Source: Candidatus Nomurabacteria bacterium
GTDB lineage: Bacteria > Patescibacteriota > Minisyncoccia > Phycocordibacterales > UBA9973
Direction: 5' to 3'
NCBI GenBank assembly: GCA_028286705.1
Contig: JAQBRC010000006.1
Span: 1 to 46,328, forward strand
DNA: 46,328 nucleotides
Both the position numbers and the translations under genes were made by a program. This document shows positions 10,978 to 38,385 of this stretch, piece after piece. How positions within the stretch are numbered: the first letter of the stretch is position 1; each line of letters starts with the position of its first letter. The notes beneath the pieces are model-generated. The model did no database searches, was not told where the DNA came from, and was given only the letters and a program-made list of their open reading frames with translations.

Positions 10978-11631
10978 AAAAGATTCTTCCTGGGCAAGTT
11001 CTAGCCACTTAAGTAGCTTCTTCTTGAGTCCAGTATTCGTCATTATAGTGATACCTACACCATATTGCAAGCGTTTTATTGGTTCTTTTCCTTGTAAAAA
11101 CTGTGTCTTGTGAAACTGATCTGTATTGATAAACAATTGCTGAGACCAATATTCCTTGCAGATTAGCTCGTTGTTATCAGGATATAGTAATAACGCACAT
11201 CTTAATAAGTTTCTTGGGGAGGACAGGTACCGTGCTAAAAAATCACAAAAAATGCGATGAATATAGGCTTCCGAATTGCTAACGCGGATTATATGTCGAC
11301 TTCTCTTATCCCCTTCTCCTGCATAAACCATCAATCCAGCCCAAAAAAGTGGGTCTTTCCTAAATAGCTTATATTCTTCAGCTGCCTCAGATTCTTGTAG
11401 GGAGTAAAAGCTTTCAAGCTTGAGACTTCGCGCCGCATTCATCTGAATAACCCGCTTTGTTGAGCGTTCAACTTGTGCACCTGTATTTATCTGCTTTAAA
11501 TGAAGAGACCATTCTTCGTTCTTAAACCACTTCGTTAAGGTTGCACGTGAAACACCTGTTTCTTTCTCAATAGCCCTATATGTCATGCCACTTTTTCGCA
11601 TATTAAATATTTTTTCTTTGTCCTTTCTCAT
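10963..11631 (-). CDS. HTH-domain protein with a LAGLIDADG-like motif (possible free-standing homing-endonuclease-like gene)
   Basis: 222 aa. The N-terminal HTH region is MRKSGMTYRAIEKETGVSRATLTKWFKN. The central motif FWAGLMVYAGEGDK resembles LAGLIDADG/GxxxGEG, recognised by eye only. The last five codons and the TAG stop lie inside the tRNA-Gly(GCC) gene. Confidence 0.55.
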   Translation of the reverse strand: MRKDKEKIFNMRKSGMTYRAIEKETGVSRATLTKWFKNEEWSLHLKQINTGAQVERSTKRVIQMNAARSLKLESFYSLQESEAAEEYKLFRKDPLFWAGLMVYAGEGDKRSRHIIRVSNSEAYIHRIFCDFLARYLSSPRNLLRCALLLYPDNNELICKEYWSQQLFINTDQFHKTQFLQGKEPIKRLQYGVGITIMTNTGLKKKLLKWLELAQEESFAVIV

Positions 11632-11699
11632 GCAAGTATAAGTATACTACCGTGGTTTATTTTTTACAAAACCCTATCAAAGTGATACAGTACTGTTAC

Positions 11700-11772
11700 G
11701 CACCTGTAGCTCAATGGATAGAGCACTTGTCTTCGGAACAAGGGGTTGTGGGTTCGACTCCTGCCAGGTGCA
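11700..11772 (+). tRNA. tRNA-Arg (anticodon UCG)
   Basis: GCACCTGTAGCTCAATGGATAGAGCACTTGTCTTCGGAACAAGGGGTTGTGGGTTCGACTCCTGCCAGGTGCA forms a cloverleaf with anticodon loop CTTCGGA. The 3' flank is CAA, so no CCA is encoded. Confidence 0.9.
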
Positions 11773-11788
11773 CAACAATCATATTCTC

Positions 11789-13294
11789 ATGAATACCATA
11801 GACAATACAAAGATCCCCTCTTTCGTTTCACATGTAACCAAAACACTTCAAGATGCAGGCTATGAAGCGTATCTTGTTGGCGGCTGCGTTCGAGATCTAT
11901 TACTGGGCAAGGCTCCTAAGGATTGGGATGTAACCACAAATGCCCATCCAGAGCAGATTGAAGCTGCCTTCCCTACCATTAAGACCGTATACGAAAACAC
12001 CTTTGGTACAGTCACCGTTATTGACCTTTCTGCTGATGAAACACTTCGAGATGTTACACATGTAACAAAACCAGAAGAAGTTCAGGTTACAACATACCGT
12101 TCTGAAGGCACTTATACTGATAATCGCCGTCCTGACAGTGTTACATATGAAACAAAGCTGGAAAAAGACCTAGAACGTCGTGACTTTACTATCAATGCCA
12201 TGGCTTATAACCCTCATAATGGACAGATTATCGATATATTTAAAGGACAGTCCGATATAAAGGACAAAATAATTAGATGTGTCCTTGATGCAGACATACG
12301 CTTTGAGGAGGATGCTTTGCGCATGATGCGCGCTATTCGGTTTTCCACAACCCTTCATTTCGCTATTGCCACAGAAACTCTAGCCGCCTTAACAGCTAAG
12401 TCTTCCCTATTAGCCCGTATTTCACAGGAACGTATCCGAGACGAATTCCTTAAAATCATCCAATCTGACCAACCAGCTCTGGGCATAGATCTTTTGCAGA
12501 AGACTGGCCTGTTACACATTATCGCTCCAGAGTTCGAAGAAGGCATTGGATGCGAGCAAAAAGGTGCCCACTTGTACGATGTATACAATCACCTGTTACA
12601 CGCTCTTCAGCATGCTGCAGACAAGAATTTCTCTCTTGAAGTACGCCTTGCTGCCCTGTTTCATGACATCGGCAAGCCTGCTACCCGTCGATATGACAAA
12701 ACCAAGGATAAATATACCTTCTTTGGACACGAGGTCGTTGGGGCTCGAATGACCAAGAAAATCCTTGAAAGAATGAGGCTTTCACGTGAAACAAGCGAAT
12801 TGGTTGTTTCATTGGTGAGAAACCACATGTTTTTCTCTGACACTGAACAAATCACCCTTTCTGCTGTTCGACGCATCATCCAGAAGGTTACACGTGAAAA
12901 CATTTGGCTGCTTATGGAGGTTCGCGAATGCGACCGCGTAGGTATGGCAAAGGTTGAAGCCCCATACAGATTGCGTAAATATCACGCAATGATTGAAGAA
13001 GCGCTTCGAGATCCTATTAGTGTTTCTCAACTAGCTATTGATGGTGAATACCTTATAAAGACGTTACACATGAAACCAGGACCTCGAATGGGCTGGACAT
13101 TACACGCTTTATTAGAAGAAGTATTGGATAATCCTGAAATAAACACTGTGGAACAGCTAACAGAACGTGTTTCTGCCCTAGATTCCCTAGCAGACAATGA
13201 TTTAAAGGCTTTGGGTGAAAAAGCTAAGGATAAGAAGGAAGAAGCCAATGAAGCTGAGGTTGGCCAACTGCGTCAAAAACACCGAGTAAAGTAG
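11789..13294 (+). CDS. cca: CCA-adding enzyme / tRNA nucleotidyltransferase with HD domain
   Basis: Motifs GGCVRDLLLG..DWD and RDFTINA (polymerase beta-type NTase head), plus an HD-domain HDIGK. The track ORF's first 25 codons are the tRNA-Arg gene, so the start is moved to the ATG at 11789. Confidence 0.9.
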   Translation: MNTIDNTKIPSFVSHVTKTLQDAGYEAYLVGGCVRDLLLGKAPKDWDVTTNAHPEQIEAAFPTIKTVYENTFGTVTVIDLSADETLRDVTHVTKPEEVQVTTYRSEGTYTDNRRPDSVTYETKLEKDLERRDFTINAMAYNPHNGQIIDIFKGQSDIKDKIIRCVLDADIRFEEDALRMMRAIRFSTTLHFAIATETLAALTAKSSLLARISQERIRDEFLKIIQSDQPALGIDLLQKTGLLHIIAPEFEEGIGCEQKGAHLYDVYNHLLHALQHAADKNFSLEVRLAALFHDIGKPATRRYDKTKDKYTFFGHEVVGARMTKKILERMRLSRETSELVVSLVRNHMFFSDTEQITLSAVRRIIQKVTRENIWLLMEVRECDRVGMAKVEAPYRLRKYHAMIEEALRDPISVSQLAIDGEYLIKTLHMKPGPRMGWTLHALLEEVLDNPEINTVEQLTERVSALDSLADNDLKALGEKAKDKKEEANEAEVGQLRQKHRVK

Positions 13295-27297: not shown

Positions 27298-30200
27298 GTG
27301 TCCGCACGTCTATTTCGTCGCATTAAATCATCTTTTTCTCGTTTGAACAAAACATTCTTTTTCTCTGTAGCATTGGGGTTGGTTGTTGTGTTTTTTTCTG
27401 TTAGTCACGTGCTTGCTGACGCTGCCACAGACTACAGGTATTATCTAAAAAATTTTACTACTTCTAATGATGGCAAGTTAACTAGTGGGATTGGTGGCGG
27501 AACAGTAGCCGCAGCAAGTAAAAATGGTACAGGGGGTGATGGGCTAGTCTTCGTGGCCAATCTTGGAGTTGATACTTCTTCTCCTCATATTAACGCTAGC
27601 GTAAATGAGCCAGACAGTATTGCTCTGCACTGGGGTAGAGTAGCTCACATCAACGAAGCCTTTGTTATAAAAGTATGTCAGAATGGTACGACTCAGTGTT
27701 ATCTTAATACGGTCGCATACACCAATAATAGAGCAGACCCTGGGGTCCAAGCATTTTCTGAAACAGATACAGACGGCAACATTGCCGACAAGCAAGCTCT
27801 TCCTGTTGTTGCTTTCACAAAAACAGATCCAAGAAATACCGGTAACATATACGGATACGATGCGACAAATAAAACTGTCAGTACTAGCAACGGTATAACA
27901 TTTGGAAACGGCAGTTCACTTACGGCGACATTTTGGTACTGTGCCGTGAAAGGAACGGGGGATCCAGCCCCTCAGGACTATCTAAAAGCCAATCCTTCGG
28001 CAACTGACGCAGCAGTATTTGGAAATCTTTGTGGAGGCAGTACGTATTTTCAGATTGGAGGCCCTCTTTCAATAACAATTCCCTTAAATGCAAATGCAAT
28101 AAATCAGCAGGTGACACAATCTAGCCAGACTGTTGCAGCTGGATCAAGCGCAAGCTCATCAGACAACAGCAATATTCCAACTTGTGGAGTTACCAGTGGT
28201 ACAAAACTGTATGGCTGTGTGGCTTATCTCGCATATGGTATCTATGTTCTAGTTGCATGGGTTGCCGGTATCTTGGGCAGCCTCTTTGATTTCTTCTTGG
28301 GATATTCTGTTAGCGATGCCTCATATCGATATGGTTTTGCTGTTAACGGCTGGAAGCTGGTGCGTGATATCTCAAATATCTTTTTTATAATTATTATGGT
28401 GTGGACAGGTTTTTCTGCTGTCTTTGATACCAGCAAGAGCGGATCAATGCGTAAGATTGTTCCTGCACTTATCATCAACGCACTGCTCATCAACTTCAGT
28501 CTTTTTGCAACGAGGGTGGTCATTGATATTTCTAATATCACCGCACGTATGTTCTATAGTCAGATGGTGGTATGTGACAAGGTAAATATCGATACCAATA
28601 CTGGGAAGTGTGATCCGCTACAGGCAAGGCGAGGACCGGGGGGGTATTGGCCTTTGTCAGAAAAGATCATTTCTTCATTCAATCCTCAACAGCTGTTTAA
28701 GACTGCAACATTGCAACCTACGACAGCTCCTAGCAATACTTCTACAACCAATAGTTCTCAGCCCGGATTCTTGCCTGGCGCAACAGCAGGGACAGCAGGG
28801 ACTAGCGAGGTAGACTATGTGAACTATTTTATGGTGGTATGTATTGTTGCGGCAATCATTATGGGCTTTGCCGGAGTTATCTTTTTCAAGGTGGCATTCT
28901 TGTTCATTGCCCGAGTTGTCGGCCTGTATATTTGTATGATCTTCTCTCCGTTTGCTTTCCTTAGTCGTGATATTCCGATGCTCGGAAAGATTAAGCAACT
29001 GAGATGGGAAGACTGGCTTGGTGACCTTACTAATTATGCCTTGATGGCTCCAGTGTTTACATTTTTCCTCTACGTTATCTTCACTGTTATCTCTAGCGAC
29101 TTTGCTCAGCAGATAGGATACATGGATAGCAGCGGTACCTTTATGGGCACAGTACTATCCATTGTTATTCCTATGGCACTTATATACTTCCTTCTTGATG
29201 CAGCGAAAAGTGCTGCTACTAAGCTTTCAGGAAGTGTCGGACAAAAAATACAAGGGTTCGGAGAACAGATAACAGGCATGGCAGCTGGTACAGCCCTGGG
29301 CTTAGCAACTGGTGGTGCTGGTTTCTTGGGAAGAAATGTAGTGGGGCGTGCAGCAAAGAGTTTCGGGGAAGGGAAGACTGGCAGACAAATTGAGATAGAC
29401 GGCAAGATGGTAGATGAAACACGGGCAATGAGTATTGCATCACGATCAGCAACAAGTTGGTCTGCGAGACAAAAGAACAAGCTCTTGCGCGCAACACAGG
29501 TAGGAAGTTTCAATGTTGGGAATGCCGGCGTGAATATTGGAGGAAAGGACTACAAGCTTAATGATACTATCGGAAGAAGTCTTGGTCTTATGGGCGTAAA
29601 AACAAATAATCTGCTAAAAAATGCAGACTATGTTGGAGATGACGCAGGCAAAGGCGGGATTGTAGCCGTTGATAAAAAGCGTACTGAGGAACGCCAGAAA
29701 GAACTTGAGAATCGTATTCAATTCGATCATCTTAGCGATGACGAAGCTAAGGCAACATGGGAAGCACATAAAAGAAATGCTGCGCTAAAGAACGCAGAAG
29801 GTAACTGGAAGAACAATGATAATATCGATAAGGAAGATGGTGTAAAAGAAACAGCTGAATTACTAAAGACAGCAACTGAAAAAGAAGTGGCCTTGAGTAA
29901 AGAAAATGCTGATCTCGAACAGAAACTAGCTACCGCAACAGCTGCTGGAAGCACTGCGGAAATAGCTGCTCTGACTGCATCAAAAACAGCAAAGGAGAAA
30001 GAGGTCAGCGACAATCAGACCCGGAAGAATGCACTTACAACTACAATTGAAACCGAGCGTAAAAATAAAATCACAGAGCTTGAAAAAGGCAAGTACATGG
30101 AATCAGAAGCGTACAAAGCGGCAGAAAAAACTGAAAGGGAACGCCTTGATAAATTTGGAAAAATCAAAAATGGCAAAATGCTCACCGCTGCAATGCGCTC

Positions 30201-30831
30201 AGAATATGGTGAAGATTTGCGTAAGAATTCATTCTGGCTTAAGGACGGTAAGCCTCGATATGATCAAGCAGCTCTTGTTGCAGAAGGCGGTGTAATTGGT
30301 GGCGCAGCTGGTGCCGCAGCAATGGCGAGTCTGCTACCAGGAATTACTATTGCTATAGGCACAATGTTAGGGGTGAGCGGAGGAGTTATCGACAACAGAT
30401 TTGGTGATATCAACAGCAAGGCAACAAAGGCTATGGTTGATTCGTTTAAGAAGACACAAGGAAAGGGGAACAAGGAAACAAGGTTGGCTGGAGAAATTGA
30501 TGCAATCAATGATCAGATCAAGCAGGCAGCAGAAGCGCATGGCACGGTTCCTAGTGGCGGGGTAGACAGCTGGTCGGAAGAAGATGTAGAAACAGCAATC
30601 GCAGGACATACATATATCCTTCAACAAGAAAAAGAAGCTCTACACAGAGAAGCATCCGCTAGGGGCGTATCGGAGGAAGTTAAGAGAGCAAAAACTATCG
30701 AGGCACAATTGAAACAGAAGAAGATTGATAAGTTGAATAAGGCTATGGAAGAAAAGCGCAGAATTCAAAATGAGCTAGACAAGATAAAAACTGCAGCAGA
30801 TAATGCAAAGAAGGATGAACCTAAAAAATAA
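27298..30831 (+). CDS. Giant polytopic membrane protein, VirB6/TrbL-like by architecture and context (1177 aa)
   Basis: GTG start. About 290 aa of extracytoplasmic N-domain, at least 7 central TM helices (for example LYGCVAYLAYGIYVLVAWVAGILG, IFFIIIMVWTGFSAVF, VVCIVAAIIMGFAGVIFFKVAFLFIARVVGLYICMIF), then about 500 aa of K/E/A-rich coiled-coil tail. Positioned upstream of the PrgI-like and VirB4 genes, as in Gram-positive T4SS loci. Confidence 0.6.
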   Translation: MSARLFRRIKSSFSRLNKTFFFSVALGLVVVFFSVSHVLADAATDYRYYLKNFTTSNDGKLTSGIGGGTVAAASKNGTGGDGLVFVANLGVDTSSPHINASVNEPDSIALHWGRVAHINEAFVIKVCQNGTTQCYLNTVAYTNNRADPGVQAFSETDTDGNIADKQALPVVAFTKTDPRNTGNIYGYDATNKTVSTSNGITFGNGSSLTATFWYCAVKGTGDPAPQDYLKANPSATDAAVFGNLCGGSTYFQIGGPLSITIPLNANAINQQVTQSSQTVAAGSSASSSDNSNIPTCGVTSGTKLYGCVAYLAYGIYVLVAWVAGILGSLFDFFLGYSVSDASYRYGFAVNGWKLVRDISNIFFIIIMVWTGFSAVFDTSKSGSMRKIVPALIINALLINFSLFATRVVIDISNITARMFYSQMVVCDKVNIDTNTGKCDPLQARRGPGGYWPLSEKIISSFNPQQLFKTATLQPTTAPSNTSTTNSSQPGFLPGATAGTAGTSEVDYVNYFMVVCIVAAIIMGFAGVIFFKVAFLFIARVVGLYICMIFSPFAFLSRDIPMLGKIKQLRWEDWLGDLTNYALMAPVFTFFLYVIFTVISSDFAQQIGYMDSSGTFMGTVLSIVIPMALIYFLLDAAKSAATKLSGSVGQKIQGFGEQITGMAAGTALGLATGGAGFLGRNVVGRAAKSFGEGKTGRQIEIDGKMVDETRAMSIASRSATSWSARQKNKLLRATQVGSFNVGNAGVNIGGKDYKLNDTIGRSLGLMGVKTNNLLKNADYVGDDAGKGGIVAVDKKRTEERQKELENRIQFDHLSDDEAKATWEAHKRNAALKNAEGNWKNNDNIDKEDGVKETAELLKTATEKEVALSKENADLEQKLATATAAGSTAEIAALTASKTAKEKEVSDNQTRKNALTTTIETERKNKITELEKGKYMESEAYKAAEKTERERLDKFGKIKNGKMLTAAMRSEYGEDLRKNSFWLKDGKPRYDQAALVAEGGVIGGAAGAAAMASLLPGITIAIGTMLGVSGGVIDNRFGDINSKATKAMVDSFKKTQGKGNKETRLAGEIDAINDQIKQAAEAHGTVPSGGVDSWSEEDVETAIAGHTYILQQEKEALHREASARGVSEEVKRAKTIEAQLKQKKIDKLNKAMEEKRRIQNELDKIKTAADNAKKDEPKK

Positions 30832-31463: not shown

Positions 31464-31883
31464 ATGCAGTTCAAGGTCCCACAATTTATTGATATTGAAG
31501 ACAAAGTCTTTGGACCGCTTACCTTCAAACAGTTCGCATACCTTGCAGGGGGAGCGGGCCTTGGCTATTTGGCGTTTCGTTTCTTGCCGACAATTATTGC
31601 GATTGTTGTGGGGCCATTGCTGGTAGCGTTCGCATTAGCGTTGGCATTTATGAAATACAACGACAAGCCGTTTGTTAACGTAGTTGAATCATTTATTCGA
31701 TACTATTCACATTCTCGACTATACCTTTGGCACAAGCAGCCATCTGGAAATGTTACAACCGCTCGTCCTCGAGACGATATGCCTCAGCTCATCGCCCATA
31801 CAGGACAAGGCCGTGATACAATGAACGAGAGTAAGCTGAAGACACTTTCATGGAGTGTTGATGTCATTGACCCTAAAAAATAA
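31464..31883 (+). CDS. PrgI-family (VirB3-like) small membrane protein
   Basis: The N-terminus MQFKVPQFIDIEDKVFGPLTFKQFAYLAGGAGLGYLAF followed by two TM helices matches the remembered PrgI-family pattern. It sits immediately upstream of VirB4, as expected for this family. Confidence 0.7.
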   Translation: MQFKVPQFIDIEDKVFGPLTFKQFAYLAGGAGLGYLAFRFLPTIIAIVVGPLLVAFALALAFMKYNDKPFVNVVESFIRYYSHSRLYLWHKQPSGNVTTARPRDDMPQLIAHTGQGRDTMNESKLKTLSWSVDVIDPKK

Positions 31884-31885
31884 CT

Positions 31886-32521
31886 ATGGCCACTATCGGA
31901 ACACCCGCCCAACAATTTATTCCCGTCCAGGACGTTCGTGACGGCATTGTCGTATTGAAAGACGGCACCCTTTGCACCATTGTATTGGTTTCTTCCGTCA
32001 ACCTTAGCCTAAAGTCATACGACGAACAGCGCGCAACACTGTCTCAGTTCCAGAACTTTTTAAATACTCTTGATTTTCCAGTACAGATTGTCGTTCAGTC
32101 TCGTAAATATGATGTTCGTCCTTATATTTTAACGCTAGAAAACCGTCTGAAAGAGCAGACAGAGCAGCTGTTGCAGGTACAGACTCGCGAATATATCCAG
32201 TTTATCCAAACTTTTACCGACCAAGTGAACGTTATGCGCAAGTCTTTTTTTGTAGTTATTCCGTATGTTCCAGCAGTATTGAAACAAAGTTCTGGCATTG
32301 GAAAATTCTTTTCGTTCCTACGAAGTACTCCTAAGTCTGATTCTGGAGTTATCAGCGACTTTGAGGAAGAGCGTACGCAGCTTGAGCAACGCGTTAGCGT
32401 TGTTGAACAGGGACTATCAAGCGTTGGTCTTCGACTGGTGCAGCTTGGTACGCAGGAGGTGATTGAAGTGCTGTATAAGACCTTCAACCCTGGAGAAACC
32501 ACCAGCCAATCTAACGCCTAG
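31886..32521 (+). CDS. VirB4 N-terminal segment encoded as a separate 211-aa ORF
   Basis: QQFIPVQDVRDGIVVLKDGTLCTIVLVSSVNLSLKSYDEQRATLSQFQNFLNTLDFPVQIVVQS resembles the extreme N-terminus of Gram-positive VirB4-type ATPases (Tn916 Orf16/TcpF/PrgJ class), which are normally about 800-aa single polypeptides. Confidence 0.6.
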   Translation: MATIGTPAQQFIPVQDVRDGIVVLKDGTLCTIVLVSSVNLSLKSYDEQRATLSQFQNFLNTLDFPVQIVVQSRKYDVRPYILTLENRLKEQTEQLLQVQTREYIQFIQTFTDQVNVMRKSFFVVIPYVPAVLKQSSGIGKFFSFLRSTPKSDSGVISDFEEERTQLEQRVSVVEQGLSSVGLRLVQLGTQEVIEVLYKTFNPGETTSQSNA

Positions 32522-32546
32522 CGATAAACTGAGGTATACTGTATCC

Positions 32547-34334
32547 ATGAAAGACAACGGAGGGCTTCTACCAATCTCCTCATCACAAGTTCACGAATGG
32601 GAAACAATGGAACTAGCAGACAAGATTGCTCCTTCTGCTATTGAAATCACTTCCAAGTCCATGCGTATCGGCGATAAGATCGTTCGTACCTTCTTTGTTA
32701 TTTCTTATCCTCGATACCTTACCGACAATTGGCTGACTCCAATTATCAATCTTGATAAGATTTTTGATATTGCCATCTATGTTAACCCTATTGAAACAGC
32801 AGAATTGCTGAAGCATTTCCAGAAGAAGATTGCCGAAGTGGAGAGTCAGATCATCGTTCGCCAGCAAAAGGGATTAGTTCGCGACCCAATGCTTGATACT
32901 GCGAGAGAAGACTTGGAAGAGCTTCGTGACAACCTGACACAGGCACAGGAAAAGATGTTTGACCTTGGCATGTACATCACCATCTACGCTGACAACGAAA
33001 CAGACTTGTTCCGCACTGAAAGTGAAATCAAGTCACTGCTTGAGTCAAAGCTTATTTATATGAAGCCAACGCTCTTTCAAGAAGAGGATGGGTTCAAGAC
33101 TGTTGCCCCACTTGGTACAGACAAACTCAATGTCACACAAAAGCTTAACTCTGAGCCTATTTCTAGTATGTTTCCATTCGTTTCATTCGACCTTACAAGC
33201 GAAACAGGAATCTTGTACGGTGTTAACCGACACAACTCTAGTCTTGTTATCTTTGATCGTTTCAGTCTTGAAAACTATAACTCTATTATCTTTGCCAAGT
33301 CTGGTGCCGGAAAGAGTTACGCGACAAAGTTGGAAATCATTCGTACGTTGATGTTTGATACAGACGTTATCGTTATTGACCCTGAACGAGAATACGAATA
33401 TCTCGCAGAAGCTATTGGCGGACGTTATTTTAATATTTCATTGTCTTCAGAACACCACATTAATCCGTTTGACCTTCCTATTCCTCGTGAAGACGAGTCA
33501 GCAGCAGATGTGTTGCGCAGCAACATCATCAACCTTGTTGGGTTGTTCCGTATCATGCTTGGAGGGTTAAGTCCTGAGGAAGACTCAATCATTGACCGTG
33601 CCATTACAGAAACCTATTCTCTTAAAGACATTAGTGCCGAGTCAGACTTTAGCAGCATTGAACCACCATTGCTGTCAGACTTTGAAATGGTATTGTCAGG
33701 GATGGAGGGAACTGACTCTGTCTTGCAGCGTCTCACTAAATATACCCATGGCTCATGGTCTAACTTTATCAACCAGCCAACAAACGTTGATATCAACAAG
33801 AAGTTCGTTGTCTTTTCAGTGCGAGACATGGAAGACGACCTTAAGCCTGCTGCTATGTATATAGTGACGCACTTTATTTGGAATGCTGTCCGCAAGGAAC
33901 TGAAGAAGCGCCTATTGGTTGTTGACGAGGCATGGTGGATGATGAAGTCAGAAGACACAGCAAGCTTCCTATACTCCATCGCAAAGCGAGGACGTAAGTA
34001 TTATTTGGGCCTTTGTACCATTACTCAAGACGTTGGGGACTTCATGAAGAGCCCATATGGTGTGCCAATTATCACCAACTCTTCTATCCAGCTATTGCTG
34101 AAGCAATCTCCATCAACTATGGATGTCTTGCAAAAGACCTTTAACCTGACTGACGAGGAGAAGTATCTATTGTTGGAGTCTGGGGTAGGGGAAGGAATCT
34201 TCTTTGCCGGACTGAAGCATGTGGCTATCAAGATCATCGCTTCCTATACAGAAGACCAAATCATCACCTCTGACCCTTCACAGGTTATTTCTATCAAGAA
34301 AGCCAAACAGGAATTCTCCGAACAGAGAGCGTAA
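32547..34334 (+). CDS. virB4: VirB4-type T4SS ATPase (C-terminal 595 aa including the P-loop domain)
   Basis: Walker A is FAKSGAGKSYATK and Walker B is LLVVDEAWWMM. The upstream VirB4 middle region is KIAPSAIEI...RTFFVISYPRYLTDNWL. The ATG at 32547 is chosen over the track's 32463, which overlaps the previous ORF in another frame. Confidence 0.85.
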   Translation: MKDNGGLLPISSSQVHEWETMELADKIAPSAIEITSKSMRIGDKIVRTFFVISYPRYLTDNWLTPIINLDKIFDIAIYVNPIETAELLKHFQKKIAEVESQIIVRQQKGLVRDPMLDTAREDLEELRDNLTQAQEKMFDLGMYITIYADNETDLFRTESEIKSLLESKLIYMKPTLFQEEDGFKTVAPLGTDKLNVTQKLNSEPISSMFPFVSFDLTSETGILYGVNRHNSSLVIFDRFSLENYNSIIFAKSGAGKSYATKLEIIRTLMFDTDVIVIDPEREYEYLAEAIGGRYFNISLSSEHHINPFDLPIPREDESAADVLRSNIINLVGLFRIMLGGLSPEEDSIIDRAITETYSLKDISAESDFSSIEPPLLSDFEMVLSGMEGTDSVLQRLTKYTHGSWSNFINQPTNVDINKKFVVFSVRDMEDDLKPAAMYIVTHFIWNAVRKELKKRLLVVDEAWWMMKSEDTASFLYSIAKRGRKYYLGLCTITQDVGDFMKSPYGVPIITNSSIQLLLKQSPSTMDVLQKTFNLTDEEKYLLLESGVGEGIFFAGLKHVAIKIIASYTEDQIITSDPSQVISIKKAKQEFSEQRA

Positions 34335-34361: not shown

Positions 34362-35327
34362 GTGAAATCTATCTTAAAAAGAATCAGTGTCATAACTATT
34401 GCAGCAATACTTTCAATTGTTGTGTTTAGTATGGTACATGCGCAGTCTGCTTCTGTTGATCTCTCTATCACGAGCAGTCCTATAAACCCCGCTCCGGGGG
34501 AGAAGGTAACACTTACACTGCAGAGCTTTAGTGCCGACCTCAGTCAAGCCAATATTGTTTGGGACTATAACGGCAAAAACATTGCCTCAGGAAAAGGAAG
34601 GACGACTATTTCAGTTATTGCTCCGGGTAGCGGGATATCAGGTTCCATTACTGCCAGCGCAACAGGAGGATTTAATGCGGCTAGTGCGACACTGATATTG
34701 CGGCCTGCCAGCGTTGATCTGCTCTTTGAAGGAGCAGACAGTTATACTGCTCCCTTTTATAAAGGCTTAGCGCTACCCTCAACAGGAGGAATTGTTCGCG
34801 TTACAGCAATTCCATCAATTACAGCACCAAAAGGATTGAGCTTTAACTGGAAAAGAAACGGTGAGGCGCAACAGACTGCTTCAGGCTACGGCAAATCAAC
34901 ACTATTGTTCAAGCACGACGAGCTAACCCCGACAGAAACCATTGATGTTACAGAAAACAATGGCGGTTTTAGCGGGGCTGGCAGTATCAGTGTTACTCCA
35001 GGAAAACCTATCATTGCAGGATATTTCAACAATGACGGCTATGTGGATTATGCTAACGGATCAACGGGTATCCTTAGTACAACTGGTACCGGTGCATTGA
35101 TACACTTCGAACCCTATTTTATTTCTTCTCCGAACAGCCTGGCTCGTGACTTAACATTTTCATACACTGATGACAGCGGCAATGCGCTTAATCCTTCTAG
35201 GATAAAGAACGAACTAGGATTATCTCGCCCTGACAATGGGGGAGGGTCTGATTTCAGCACCGCAGTAAGTACTGTAGTATTCACCCTTCAGAACATCACC
35301 AAACGATTCACAGTCAATTTCAATTAG
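34362..35327 (+). CDS. Secreted protein, probably beta-sandwich/Ig-like (unknown function)
   Basis: GTG start and a signal peptide (MKSILKRISVITIAAILSIVVFSMVHAQS). The beta-rich composition lacks Cys or catalytic motifs. Confidence 0.6.
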   Translation: MKSILKRISVITIAAILSIVVFSMVHAQSASVDLSITSSPINPAPGEKVTLTLQSFSADLSQANIVWDYNGKNIASGKGRTTISVIAPGSGISGSITASATGGFNAASATLILRPASVDLLFEGADSYTAPFYKGLALPSTGGIVRVTAIPSITAPKGLSFNWKRNGEAQQTASGYGKSTLLFKHDELTPTETIDVTENNGGFSGAGSISVTPGKPIIAGYFNNDGYVDYANGSTGILSTTGTGALIHFEPYFISSPNSLARDLTFSYTDDSGNALNPSRIKNELGLSRPDNGGGSDFSTAVSTVVFTLQNITKRFTVNFN

Positions 35328-35348: not shown

Positions 35349-37085
35349 ATGAAAAAAATACTGTGGCTAACATTTATCTTTACGCTGTTGTTCGTCAGCC
35401 ACAGTTTTGCTGACTACAACCTTACAGCTAAGCCAACCGGTACAACTATTAATGCCACCCTTGTAGGGGGCTTGAATAACTATCAATACCAATTAGTTGT
35501 CCAAACAACTCCCTTTGATTCAACAACTACCTATAGCGGGAAGAAACCAGGAGCGCAGGCATATATAAGTGATCCAATAACATTCAAGAGGGTAGTTGCA
35601 ACCCCACCCCTCACAACCGGAACTGCAACATGGTCAATTATCGGCAACAAAGCCAATACTCTTTACTACATACGGGTATTGGAAATTCCTTCTACTTCTG
35701 CTCCTGCAAAATATGTAACCGAACAGGCTTCCGTTACTACAGGGGCGGTCACTATTTCTTTTGACACACTCAAGACAGAAAAGGTGGCAGATGGGGAAGT
35801 TATTGTTAAGGGAAAAATTACAGATCAACCGTTTAACCCTAGCCAATACAAGGCTATATTGTATTTCACTAAAGAAGTACCCCGGAATGGCGCAACAACA
35901 ATAACAAGCAATACTGGCGCTATTCAAAGCAGCAAGACAGCTGCTCTTGGTGGACCAGAAGGCATCAACGATGATGGCACGTACTATTGGCACCTTTCTG
36001 GCCTGAGTCCAAGTACTACATACTACATCCAGCAGACAATTTCTGCGGGTGTTAATTCAAAGGTTGGATCAATTGACCACTTCGACAGCAGTACAGGAAA
36101 TATTGTTGCATCTGCAACGGATCAAGTTTCATACGACAAAGAGCACAGCTATACGCTGCTGTCTCCATTTCCTAACTTCAGTGTTCTTCCTGATCCTGAC
36201 CTTTGTGCCCAAAAGATAGCGGCAAATGGCGGGGTACGGCCTGCCAATCTTCCTTTCTGTGACATGAACGATGTTATTAACTATTTTCTTAAATTGCTAA
36301 TTGGTCTATCTGCGGTCGTGCTGGTATTCCGTCTAATGTATGAGGGATACGTATACATGACCAGCGATATGCCGTTTAAGCTAGCCAGCTCAAAAGGATC
36401 ATTCTTTGCGGCGCTCGGTGGACTGCTACTAGCACTTACTTCATACATTATTTTAAATACGATTAATCCGAAGTTAGTAAATAACAATATTGGCATAACT
36501 CAACTAGCTATTGGTATTGATGGCGATGCCAACATTCCAACTATCTTTATTCCAACAGGACAAATGCCTAAGGATATATACTGTCCGGGAAGCGGAAAAA
36601 GTGCAGCAATTGCCAAGATTGCTCAAAGCTACAAAGGAAAGGTTACATACAGTCAGACGAATAAAAGTGCGGCTGCACAGTCTGATGGATATGCTCGTCT
36701 CGACTGTTCTAGTTTTGTAAACACAGTATTGAACTGTGCTGGATATAAGGCAGGAACTGATTTCATTAATGAAGGTACTTCATCCATTTTTGGCAATTCA
36801 GAAAAACTCAGCATGTCGACAGACTTTGTTATTAATGGTGGTTCTGTCTCTGTTAAGGGAAAAGTGTTAAATCCTGGAGATTTAGTTGGGTGGCCACCTG
36901 CAGGAGGCGCTGGTCACGTGTTGATATATGTTGGAAACGCAACCTTTATGGATTCTCATGGGGGAGCGGCGGGAAGACAGCCAGGAAACGCCATTGGTGT
37001 CTATACAGCTACTCAGATCAAAACCTTATACGGAGGAAGCGCCGCTTCAAAGACAATAAATTCTATAAAGAGAATACCTGTATAG
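35349..37085 (+). CDS. Fusion protein: signal peptide, two FN3-like domains, T4SS-pilin-like (TrbC/VirB2-like) TM hairpin and a C-terminal NlpC/P60 cell-wall hydrolase
   Basis: FN3-like strings are KANTLYYIRVLE and LSGLSPSTTYYIQQT. The two-helix hairpin is VINYFLKLLIGLSAVVLVFRLMYEGYVYMTSD...FFAALGGLLLALTSYIILNTINPKL. NlpC/P60 catalytic residues are in RLDCSSFVNTVL (Cys), AGHVLIYVG (His) and MDSHG. Confidence 0.75.
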   Translation: MKKILWLTFIFTLLFVSHSFADYNLTAKPTGTTINATLVGGLNNYQYQLVVQTTPFDSTTTYSGKKPGAQAYISDPITFKRVVATPPLTTGTATWSIIGNKANTLYYIRVLEIPSTSAPAKYVTEQASVTTGAVTISFDTLKTEKVADGEVIVKGKITDQPFNPSQYKAILYFTKEVPRNGATTITSNTGAIQSSKTAALGGPEGINDDGTYYWHLSGLSPSTTYYIQQTISAGVNSKVGSIDHFDSSTGNIVASATDQVSYDKEHSYTLLSPFPNFSVLPDPDLCAQKIAANGGVRPANLPFCDMNDVINYFLKLLIGLSAVVLVFRLMYEGYVYMTSDMPFKLASSKGSFFAALGGLLLALTSYIILNTINPKLVNNNIGITQLAIGIDGDANIPTIFIPTGQMPKDIYCPGSGKSAAIAKIAQSYKGKVTYSQTNKSAAAQSDGYARLDCSSFVNTVLNCAGYKAGTDFINEGTSSIFGNSEKLSMSTDFVINGGSVSVKGKVLNPGDLVGWPPAGGAGHVLIYVGNATFMDSHGGAAGRQPGNAIGVYTATQIKTLYGGSAASKTINSIKRIPV

Positions 37086-37097
37086 TACAATACTGAT

Positions 37098-38345
37098 ATG
37101 CGAAAGATTCTCATTATTACTTTGATTTCACTAGTACTCATTATCGGGGGAGTGTATTTCTTCTATTTCAGACCACGAGTGTTGAGTGGTCAACCTGTAC
37201 CAAATGTCCTCACATCATTTTTCCCGAAAGTAACTAGTTCCGGCAATTCTTTTGGAGCTGACGATACAGCAGTTAATCCTGACGGAACACCTGTAACTGC
37301 TACAGCATCTAAGCTTAAGCAGCTTACACCGCGCCCTATAGCGGGCTACACGGCCTTTGATATCTCAACTGCAGTATCTATACCTTCAATTGACCCTAAG
37401 GTAAAACCAACCGTAACAACAAAGACTGACTATTATGTTCGGTATGTTGGAAGAACGAATGGATATGTATATGAAATAAAGAACAACGAGATTCCGTTGC
37501 AGATCAGTAATATCCTTATACCCAATGTCTACGAAGCCTTCTTTGCAGACAGCAACAATACTGCGCTGTTGCGATTCCTTCGTCCGGATGGTCAAACGAT
37601 AGCAACATACAGTGTTCCTGTCCCTCCATTAAATCCAGACAATACACGAACACAGTTGTCTGGCGTATACCTTCCGGACAATATCTTTTCACTCGCTGTT
37701 TCTCCTGACCAGAAACAGATTGCTCGTATCACCGCTGATGACACAGGTACAACACTCAGTGCTTCAACAGCTGCGGGGAAGAACATTAAGGCGCTATACA
37801 AGTCTCCTTTTAATTCATGGATACCTCAATGGAATGCTTCTGGTATCTATCTTCAGACAAAGGCAGCAGCTAGTGCCAACGGATATGTGTATGCAGTTGA
37901 CCAGACTGCCGCACGCTTGAGAAGAATAGTTGGAAACGTGAATGGATTAACAACATCTGTTAGTCCATCAGGTGCATATGTGTTGTATTCTGAAAGTGCT
38001 AATTCATCCTTTGTTACCAAGGTATTTAATACCAAACTGGGTACAACAACAACGCTTAGCCTGAAGATACTGCCTGAAAAATGTACTTGGCTACAAAACG
38101 AAGATTTAATTTGTGCGGGAAATAACAGTGTTGATAACGGGGCGTATCCTGATGCATGGTATGCAGGTACAACACACTTTGTTGATGAGCTATACCGCAT
38201 AACTCCTAATACCAATACATACAGTGTTGTATTTAATGACGGTGCAAGATCATTTGATATGACTAACCTGCAGGTTGATGAAAGCCAGCAATATCTGTAC
38301 TTTGTTGATAAGAACACTGGCATACTCTGGAAATATTCATACTAA
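37098..38345 (+). CDS. Membrane-anchored protein with TolB/PD40-like beta-propeller repeats (last gene of the locus)
   Basis: N-terminal TM helix (ILIITLISLVLIIGGVYFFYF). Repeated strings resemble PD40 blades (LAVSPDQKQIARI, SVSPSGAYVLYSE, LRFLRPDGQTIATY). Confidence 0.6.
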   Translation: MRKILIITLISLVLIIGGVYFFYFRPRVLSGQPVPNVLTSFFPKVTSSGNSFGADDTAVNPDGTPVTATASKLKQLTPRPIAGYTAFDISTAVSIPSIDPKVKPTVTTKTDYYVRYVGRTNGYVYEIKNNEIPLQISNILIPNVYEAFFADSNNTALLRFLRPDGQTIATYSVPVPPLNPDNTRTQLSGVYLPDNIFSLAVSPDQKQIARITADDTGTTLSASTAAGKNIKALYKSPFNSWIPQWNASGIYLQTKAAASANGYVYAVDQTAARLRRIVGNVNGLTTSVSPSGAYVLYSESANSSFVTKVFNTKLGTTTTLSLKILPEKCTWLQNEDLICAGNNSVDNGAYPDAWYAGTTHFVDELYRITPNTNTYSVVFNDGARSFDMTNLQVDESQQYLYFVDKNTGILWKYSY

Positions 38346-38346
38346 T

Positions 38347-38377
38347 AAAAAGACCGAGACATAGTCTCGGTCTTTTT
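38347..38377. terminator. Strong bidirectional terminator closing the T4SS-like locus and yidC
   Basis: Hairpin aaaaagaccgagac/ata/gtctcggtcttttt between convergent genes. Confidence 0.85.
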
Positions 38378-38385
38378 ATTAGTAT

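Follow-up and report, generated by a model that had tools for sequence, protein, structure and literature searches.

A type IV secretion operon gene of a Candidatus Nomurabacteria bacterium that joins a VirB2-like hairpin to an exchangeable cell-wall enzyme head

Modules of the fusion gene and its operon

The window analysed here is a stretch of 46,328 nucleotides from Candidatus Nomurabacteria bacterium (GCA_028286705.1, contig JAQBRC010000006.1), and all coordinates are those of this window. Its type IV secretion system (T4SS) operon contains an open reading frame (ORF), 35349..37085 on the + strand, which has an ATG start preceded by an AAAGG ribosome-binding site and encodes 578 amino acids. 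The product, called the fusion below, combines a signal peptide, two FN3 domains, a VirB2-like two-helix hairpin and an NlpC/P60 domain, in this order. A wall-hydrolase domain is thereby encoded inside a T4SS operon, two genes past VirB4. In relatives of the gene, the part that ends with the hairpin (the carrier) can be followed by other enzyme domains (the heads). The modules of the fusion are:

35349..35411, + strand: signal peptide, residues 1-21, MKKILWLTFIFTLLFVSHSFA before D (hydrophobic segment 4-22, ending SFA before D)
35418..35738, + strand: FN3-like domain 1, residues 24-130 (AlphaFold2 beta-sandwich, predicted local distance difference test score, pLDDT, ~90; Foldseek matches to tandem FN3 pairs)
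35772..36086, + strand: FN3-like domain 2, residues 142-246, GLSPSTTYYIQQT (AlphaFold2 beta-sandwich; Foldseek)
36114..36263, + strand: pre-hairpin segment, residues 256-305 (kept across two homologue alignments)
36264..36479, + strand: VirB2/PF18895-like hairpin, residues 306-377 (PF18895 match at 36270-36464, hhalign, AlphaFold2 helices)
36480..36575, + strand: junction or linker, residues 378-409 (pLDDT, identity drop, DNA breakpoints in relatives)
36576..37085, + strand: NlpC/P60 endopeptidase head, residues 410-578 plus stop codon (Pfam PF00877)

Hydropathy analysis finds exactly three hydrophobic segments in the protein, 4-22, 308-335 and 350-372, and the N-terminus is kept among homologues. 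An AlphaFold2 model of the 578 residues, based on 41 homologues and with a mean pLDDT of 84.9, has beta-sandwiches at 24-130 and 142-246, a small alpha/beta piece at 256-292, long helices at 306-338 and 342-371, a disordered linker at 373-390 (pLDDT <50) and a compact C-terminal domain at 410-578 (pLDDT >90). When the whole model is compared by Foldseek, tandem FN3 pairs rank first (E 5e-7, ~235-245 aligned columns). Some homologues match Pfam fn3 or Pur_ac_phosph_N in the region of the second FN3 domain; the target protein itself has no Pfam fn3 match, and no NCBIfam match either. The pre-hairpin segment carries an SYTLLSPFP motif with Y268 and L271 invariant, and its cysteines C286 and C304 are nearly invariant. 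A preliminary description, made from the sequence alone, had placed a signal peptide, two FN3-like modules, a pilin-like hairpin and an NlpC/P60 domain in this order in one chain. Hidden Markov model (HMM) and structure comparisons agree on the modules and their order, hydropathy, AlphaFold2 and Foldseek bear out the signal peptide and the FN3 pair, and the motifs quoted there (KANTLYYIRVLE, GLSPSTTYYIQQT, FLKLLIGLSAVVLVFRLMYEGYVYMTSD, ALGGLLLALTSYIILNTINPKL, DCSSF, GHVLIY and DSHG) are all found in the translation of the ORF.

The head matches PF00877 (NLPC_P60) over residues 450-537 with 29.2 bits against a cut-off of 23, and it retains the catalytic set C453 (in DCS), H523 and H537, as had been proposed from its motifs. 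In 74 of 74 related heads C453, H523, C412 and C463 are invariant; 55 of these also have H537, which elsewhere is mostly replaced by Gln or Asn. The active site is thus intact. C412 and C463 probably form a disulfide pair. Sequence searches of the PDB with the head return only the DL-endopeptidase CwlO, weakly, with the alignment running through DCSSF and GHV. A papain-like alpha+beta fold would be expected of the head, whose AlphaFold2 domain 410-578 has pLDDT >90; the Foldseek matches of the whole model were dominated by FN3. No SLT match was found on the target in the Pfam scan, hence no lytic transglycosylase or lysozyme-like domain of the kind present in VirB1 proper. The head, a predicted endopeptidase, would act on the stem peptides of the wall.

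Both large parts of the protein, the FN3 pair and the hydrolase, are most simply placed outside the membrane, because a cleavable signal peptide is followed by two transmembrane passes, the lysines lie in the loop between the two helices, and the pairs C286/C304 and C412/C463 fit disulfides of an exported protein. The same signs speak for the extracytoplasmic flanking domains that had been deduced from the two passes.

The genes of the operon run in one direction in the order PrgI, TrsD, VirB4, Ig-like protein, fusion and propeller-like protein. Beyond them lie yidC and rnpA on the opposite strand and then dnaA, and the locus is chromosomal. The features around the fusion gene are:

27298-30831: VirB6-like protein
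31464-31883, + strand: PrgI/VirB3-like protein (2.6e-11)
31886-32521, + strand: TrsD-like or TraC-like VirB4 N-domain protein, 211 aa (kept as a separate ORF in the related loci L008-L015)
32463-34334, + strand: VirB4 ATPase of the CD1110 family, P-loop ORF of ~595 aa (5e-116)
34362..35327, + strand: secreted Ig-like protein, 321 aa, upstream partner (weak Ig_3 match)
37098..38345, + strand: membrane-anchored protein, 415 aa, downstream partner and last gene of the operon (weak TolB/beta-propeller similarity)
38339-38385: terminator-like hairpin with a 20-bp perfect stem, between the convergent operon end and yidC

This arrangement recurs in seven other loci. The core order of VirB4, Ig-like gene and fusion is repeated in L008 (with a VanY head), L010 (SLT head), L011 (where the fusion is a short NlpC/P60 form without FN3), L012/L014 and L017; in longer contigs this core is also preceded by PrgI and TrsD and followed by the propeller-like gene, yidC/rnpA and dnaA. 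In L009 the same T4SS genes are present in rearranged form, with TrsD and VirB4 on opposite strands. A gene of 311-338 aa precedes the fusion gene or genes in L008, L009, L010, L011, L012/L014 and L017, and a gene of 416-548 aa follows in L008, L009, L011, L012/L014 and L017. The Ig-like and propeller-like genes are likely to be functional partners of the fusion. The terminator scan found no terminator-like site between operon genes before 38339, and its intragenic matches on the + strand are stems of 5-7 pairs only, about as many as in shuffled sequence; the hairpin at 38339-38385 looks like a bidirectional terminator.

Two other explanations of the locus were considered and rejected. The ORF at 31886-32521 is not the product of a frameshifted VirB4, as the two-gene arrangement is found in all related loci examined and corresponds to TrsD, described in a 2025 survey as the most abundant component of Patescibacterial T4SSs (PMC12102498). 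Nor is the fusion gene a prophage holin-endolysin, being fixed in the T4SS operon beside dnaA at all loci examined.

Relation of the hairpin to VirB2-like pilins

The hairpin has an invariant lysine, K349, in its loop and ends in an invariant LNTINPKL motif (LNTINPKLV). The target resembles pilins in having a signal peptide and then two hydrophobic helices with a short basic loop between them. It lacks their small size, the protein having 578 aa with ~300 aa before the hairpin and ~200 aa after it. Against PF18895 the target scores 14.8-15.9 bits, below the cut-off of 26.6, in a match that covers profile positions 7-71 of 71; its score against DUF4199 is similar. As the target is sub-threshold, the link to pilins rests on the family and on profile matches to the five pilins of the same genome. 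In the family, PF18895 is matched by 9 of 26 homologues at E<=0.01 and by 23 of 56 at E<=0.001 (best E 3.7e-9), and two homologues also match TrbC/VirB2 (PF04956), besides the PF18895 matches in 32.

The five pilins are encoded in tandem on another contig of the genome (C10:6653-9519) as proteins of 272, 150, 248, 138 and 114 aa, all of PF18895, and one of them passes the cut-offs of both PF18895 and TrbC/VirB2. When the profile of the family hairpin is compared by hhalign with these free pilins, the probability is 94.4% (E 8.5e-8); the alignment covers both helices and the loop, and the invariant loop lysine pairs with a lysine of the free pilins. The reversed-sequence control gives 0.4%. Conversely, an HMM of the fused hairpin matches, among the 1974 ORFs of the genome, the free-standing pilins only. 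The profile was also run against 300 other genomes of the phylum together with this one, and 127 of the 301 contain matches at E<=1e-10. Among the 150 matches listed at this threshold, ~82 lie in open frames of at least 300 aa and the rest are pilin-sized, 112-250 aa. We conclude, from these profile comparisons, that the hairpin module is a diverged VirB2-like pilin. The preliminary description had pointed to a resemblance to T4SS pilins, and the family matches and the hhalign result carry that claim, with the target's own Pfam score staying under the threshold.

The fused hairpin has a mean column identity of 52%, and free Patescibacterial pilins, whose arrays have been surveyed, one of 25% (PMC12102498). 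The free pilins of the genome lack the LNTINPKLV motif. The members of the C10 array are highly divergent and distant from the T4SS operon; the first has an N-terminal extension of ~170 aa, and the third a Cys-rich extension. A further weak pilin match occurs in the same genome at C4:5126-5293. In another genome (G238:C1:130697-131386), two matches to the hairpin profile fall inside one open frame of 610 aa, maybe a two-hairpin protein.

A conserved carrier with exchangeable heads

The phylogenetic spread of the fusion, which the preliminary description had proposed to survey, turned out to be that of a large Patescibacterial family. An exhaustive search of a representative library clustered at 50% identity gave 3396 matches at E<=1e-3 and 155 clusters at E<=1e-30. 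The hairpin is present in 170 of 171 retrieved family proteins, and in nearly all of them it is followed by a tail of 167-239 aa. The tails belong to at least 13 head types. Most are NlpC/P60 (n=74), SLT, SLT_2 or SLT_4 (n=33) and VanY (n=29); YkuD (n=7) and Peptidase_M15_4 (n=6) follow, together with two groups with His/Asp motifs and no Pfam family (n=6 and n=2), a group with an NNPGNI motif (n=2), and Amidase_2, M15_3-like, M74, 3D and one unassigned head (n=1 each). One SLT-headed member has an extra GDSL domain as well. Judged from these sequences, a conserved carrier, the hairpin ending in LNTINPKLV, bears interchangeable cell-wall enzymes.

Several heads have no match in Pfam or among PDB sequences: P0007, P0040, P0074, P0086, P0121 and P0163; P0072 and P0082; P0151, P0152 and that of G256:C7 (L019 898-2643); and P0117. 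In the two groups without a Pfam family the His/Asp motifs recall zinc peptidases. PDB searches with two of the unassigned heads gave nothing usable. Such heads are candidates for new families of wall enzymes.

The boundary between carrier and head is sharp. The first ~15-18 residues past LNTINPKLV still belong to the carrier, after which identity falls from 100% to background; this drop is seen in five pairs whose carriers are 97-100% identical, and the cassette breakpoints of relatives fall in the junction or linker. Not all of these carrier-identical pairs are swaps between strains: P0030 (NlpC/P60) and P0151 (unassigned head), taken at first for such a pair, are adjacent tandem paralogues on one contig, found in assemblies from three samples. 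A direct repeat of 820 nt with 100% identity spans the whole carrier of the tandem genes (L014:9995-10814 and 11463-12282), which points to recent duplication or gene conversion.

An allelic swap is demonstrated for the pair P0067/P0071. The loci L017, with an SLT head, and L018, with a VanY head, have 98.2% DNA identity over 1835 nt up to the junction, are non-homologous in their heads over 644 and 461 nt, and are 99.3% identical again from 3 nt past the stop codon onward. On the DNA comparison, this is evidently an allelic replacement at a single-copy locus. Within the GTDB family of the window, three genomes have three different heads: NlpC/P60, the NNPGNI type and SLT_2. Parsimony of head type on a FastTree tree of the hairpin needs 64 changes, against 69-86 with shuffled labels, indicating weak structure; the hairpin tree is short and noisy, and reliance is therefore placed on the pairwise and DNA comparisons instead. 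Within a given pair of proteins the heads are often better conserved than the carriers, which is compatible with fast-evolving FN3 regions.

The family thus has the build of polymorphic toxins: the N-terminal part is constant and the junction sharp, and close relatives differ in C-terminal domains that are not homologous. No head-specific immunity gene was found directly downstream, the next gene being 99.3% identical behind the SLT and the VanY heads, and the downstream gene is conserved behind all heads.

Proposed role, related systems and rival explanations

Gram-positive T4SSs require a membrane-anchored peptidoglycan hydrolase, such as PrgK or TraG (PMC12102498), and by analogy the fusion is read as the wall-cutting subunit of the chromosomal, Gram-positive-type (MPF-FATA-like) T4SS of Patescibacteria, provided with a pilin-like anchor. 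We favour this assignment with moderate confidence; for the more general role, that of a wall hydrolase associated with the T4SS and anchored by a pilin module, the support is good. The protein would be exported by Sec and its signal peptide removed. The two-helix hairpin, which presumably diverged from the VirB2-like pilin of this same system, would anchor it in the membrane so that both termini lie outside, and the FN3 pair and the endopeptidase would face the wall. Because the anchor is a pilin homologue, it could dock where VirB4, VirB6 and VirB3 handle pilins, so that the endopeptidase would cleave stem peptides at the very point at which the secretion channel or pilus traverses the wall. 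The head is a replaceable cassette attached after the invariant LNTINPKLV. Opening of the bacterium's own wall for assembly of channel and pilus would be the minimum role.

Certain observations weigh against this assignment. The PF18895 score of the target itself is below the Pfam threshold. A Foldseek search with the isolated AlphaFold2 hairpin (pLDDT 71) gave generic helical hairpins, among them no pilin and none at E<=0.001; being non-specific, this fold comparison does not decide the pilin question. A PDB sequence search with the hairpin profile returned only a chance match to RNA polymerase. The hairpin is far better conserved than free pilins and is flanked by large domains on both sides, features that speak against a bulk subunit of the pilus; docking, polymerising and mere anchoring are all compatible with them. 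Lastly, heads differ between strains with 98-99% identical flanks, which is odd for a pure housekeeping assembly factor, and some of them (VanY, YkuD) are not classical hole-punchers.

Among known proteins, the VirB1-type hydrolases of Gram-positive systems, exemplified by PrgK of pCF10, TraG of pIP501, CwlT of ICEBs1 and TcpG of pCW3, come close. Like the fusion they are membrane-anchored, encoded in the T4SS operon near VirB4 and often of NlpC/P60 or CHAP type, and they are needed for crossing the thick wall (PMC12102498). Unlike the fusion, they are anchored simply at the N-terminus, and one chain usually unites a glycosidase with a peptidase. The fusion has instead a pilin-homologue anchor in mid-chain, FN3 domains before it and a single exchangeable head after it, and some genomes obtain two activities from two genes with an identical carrier. 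The preliminary description had contrasted the fusion with the separate VirB2 and VirB1/PrgK/TcpG of classical systems; the comparison is apt because the gene is the second after VirB4 in a T4SS operon. The VirB2-like pilins of Patescibacteria (PF18895; SEML1_0014-0019 of Southlakia) share the signal peptide, the two hydrophobic helices, the basic loop and the same T4SS, but they are proteins of ~110-270 aa and highly variable; the fused module shows strong conservation and has LNTINPKLV at its end. In Southlakia epibionticum, SEML1_0006 (two lysozyme-like domains and a Cys peptidase) and SEML1_0007 (M15B-like) adjoin virB4, and the peptidase and lysozyme homologue beside virB4 are reported to be essential for epibiotic growth. 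These too are wall hydrolases beside the virB4 of a Patescibacterial T4SS. They differ in that the supplementary annotation gives them no pilin module and the pilins are separate small genes.

A more far-reaching explanation, which we hold only tentatively, is that VirB4 pulls the hairpin out of the membrane as it does a pilin, and that the hairpin is incorporated into the T4SS pilus or placed at its tip. The FN3 domains and the hydrolase would thereby be carried outward to attack the host wall; the variety of heads would match host wall chemistries or evade host inhibitors. The replacement of SLT by VanY between the near-identical flanks of L017 and L018 points that way, as do the three heads in three genomes of one GTDB family, the sharp junction after an invariant motif with at least 13 head types behind it, and the tandem copies with an 820-nt identical carrier. 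The catalytic types of the heads are also seen in lysins and antibacterial effectors, the free pilins too bear N-terminal extensions (the 272-aa and 248-aa paralogues), and T4SSs are known (X-T4SS) by which wall hydrolases are transferred to competing bacteria. An 8.6-nm tube between parasite and host, seen by cryo-electron tomography in another Patescibacterium (PMC11880426), is compatible with it and not specific. However, the location of the protein in a pilus is purely hypothetical, a packed filament would leave no room for domains of ~300 and ~200 aa on the two sides of a pilin, and the hairpin is conserved far beyond surface-exposed pilins. There is also no immunity-like gene specific to a head, the downstream gene being 99% identical in DNA whatever the head, and any wall hydrolase might open the self wall equally, so that swaps could be neutral. 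Polymorphic toxins (CdiA-CT, Rhs, LXG) do resemble the family in having a constant delivery part, a junction motif and a variable C-terminal enzyme that is swapped between close strains, and X-T4SS effectors of Xanthomonas and Stenotrophomonas include wall hydrolases. In contrast to both, the fusion has no cognate immunity gene, its recognisable heads are all wall-acting, with no nucleases or pore-formers, and in place of a soluble protein secreted by means of a C-terminal signal its carrier is a membrane pilin module. The want of a head-specific immunity gene and the fact that every recognisable head is a wall enzyme count against a classical polymorphic toxin. What might still be imagined, as a doubtful but possible extension, is a polymorphic arsenal borne on the pilus, in which the T4SS extracts and displays a pilin carrier whose exchangeable enzymes breach the host wall for the epibiotic connection.

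At the opposite extreme, the fusion could be a general autolysin of growth and division with a two-pass anchor, standing beside T4SS genes by chance. NlpC/P60, VanY, YkuD and SLT domains are indeed common in housekeeping wall enzymes, and the operon lies in a conserved origin region near yidC, dnaA and a penicillin-binding protein. We consider this improbable, as even divergent genomes keep the fusion gene immediately behind VirB4 and the Ig-like gene, the anchor has no relatives among the membrane proteins of the genome except the T4SS pilins, and housekeeping enzymes are not normally swapped for unrelated catalytic types between near-identical strains. That the pilin likeness itself is due to convergence or composition, in an ordinary hydrophobic anchor, would agree with the sub-threshold PF18895 score, the similar DUF4199 score and the non-specific structure search. 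It is very improbable, given that the family profile picks only pilins among 1974 ORFs while the reversed control fails, that many members match PF18895 over its full length with E down to 3.7e-9, and that the profile, run on 300 other genomes, picks up long fusions as well as pilin-sized ORFs of 112-250 aa at E<=1e-10.

If the fusion is the wall-cutting subunit proposed here, it would physically link pilins with the breaching of the wall, and would offer a lead on how host-dependent, ultra-small bacteria open cell walls. In the sole Patescibacterium tested, epibiotic growth depends on the T4SS as an essential system, whose role is completely unknown according to reviews; a pilus-borne arsenal, if true, would be a new class of polymorphic effectors and would give a function to this essential, unexplained system. 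Head exchange between near-identical strains yields a testable prediction on host range, and the conserved carrier and junction can be used for profile searches, as a site for tags and as a boundary of recombination.

In a 2025 survey with separate searches for VirB1 and VirB2, homologues of VirB1 were few; most pilin-bearing genomes had none, from which it was suggested that the pilus may be formed without VirB1 (PMC12102498). The wall-cutting function appears rather to be present but hidden, being fused to a pilin and of catalytic types missed by VirB1 profiles. The main text of the survey (PMC12102498) makes no mention of NlpC or of a pilin fusion, a 2025 T4SS review and the paper by Wang et al. 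describe small separate pilins only, and literature searches beyond these returned nothing on pilin-hydrolase fusions; the combination of a T4SS hydrolase joined to a T4SS pilin, with swappable heads, is not discussed in the literature searched. One row of the survey's supplementary table, on the other hand, lists a protein two genes past VirB4 that is called VirB2 and also has PF00877 (PMC12102498). The fusion, though not discussed, is therefore present in published data.

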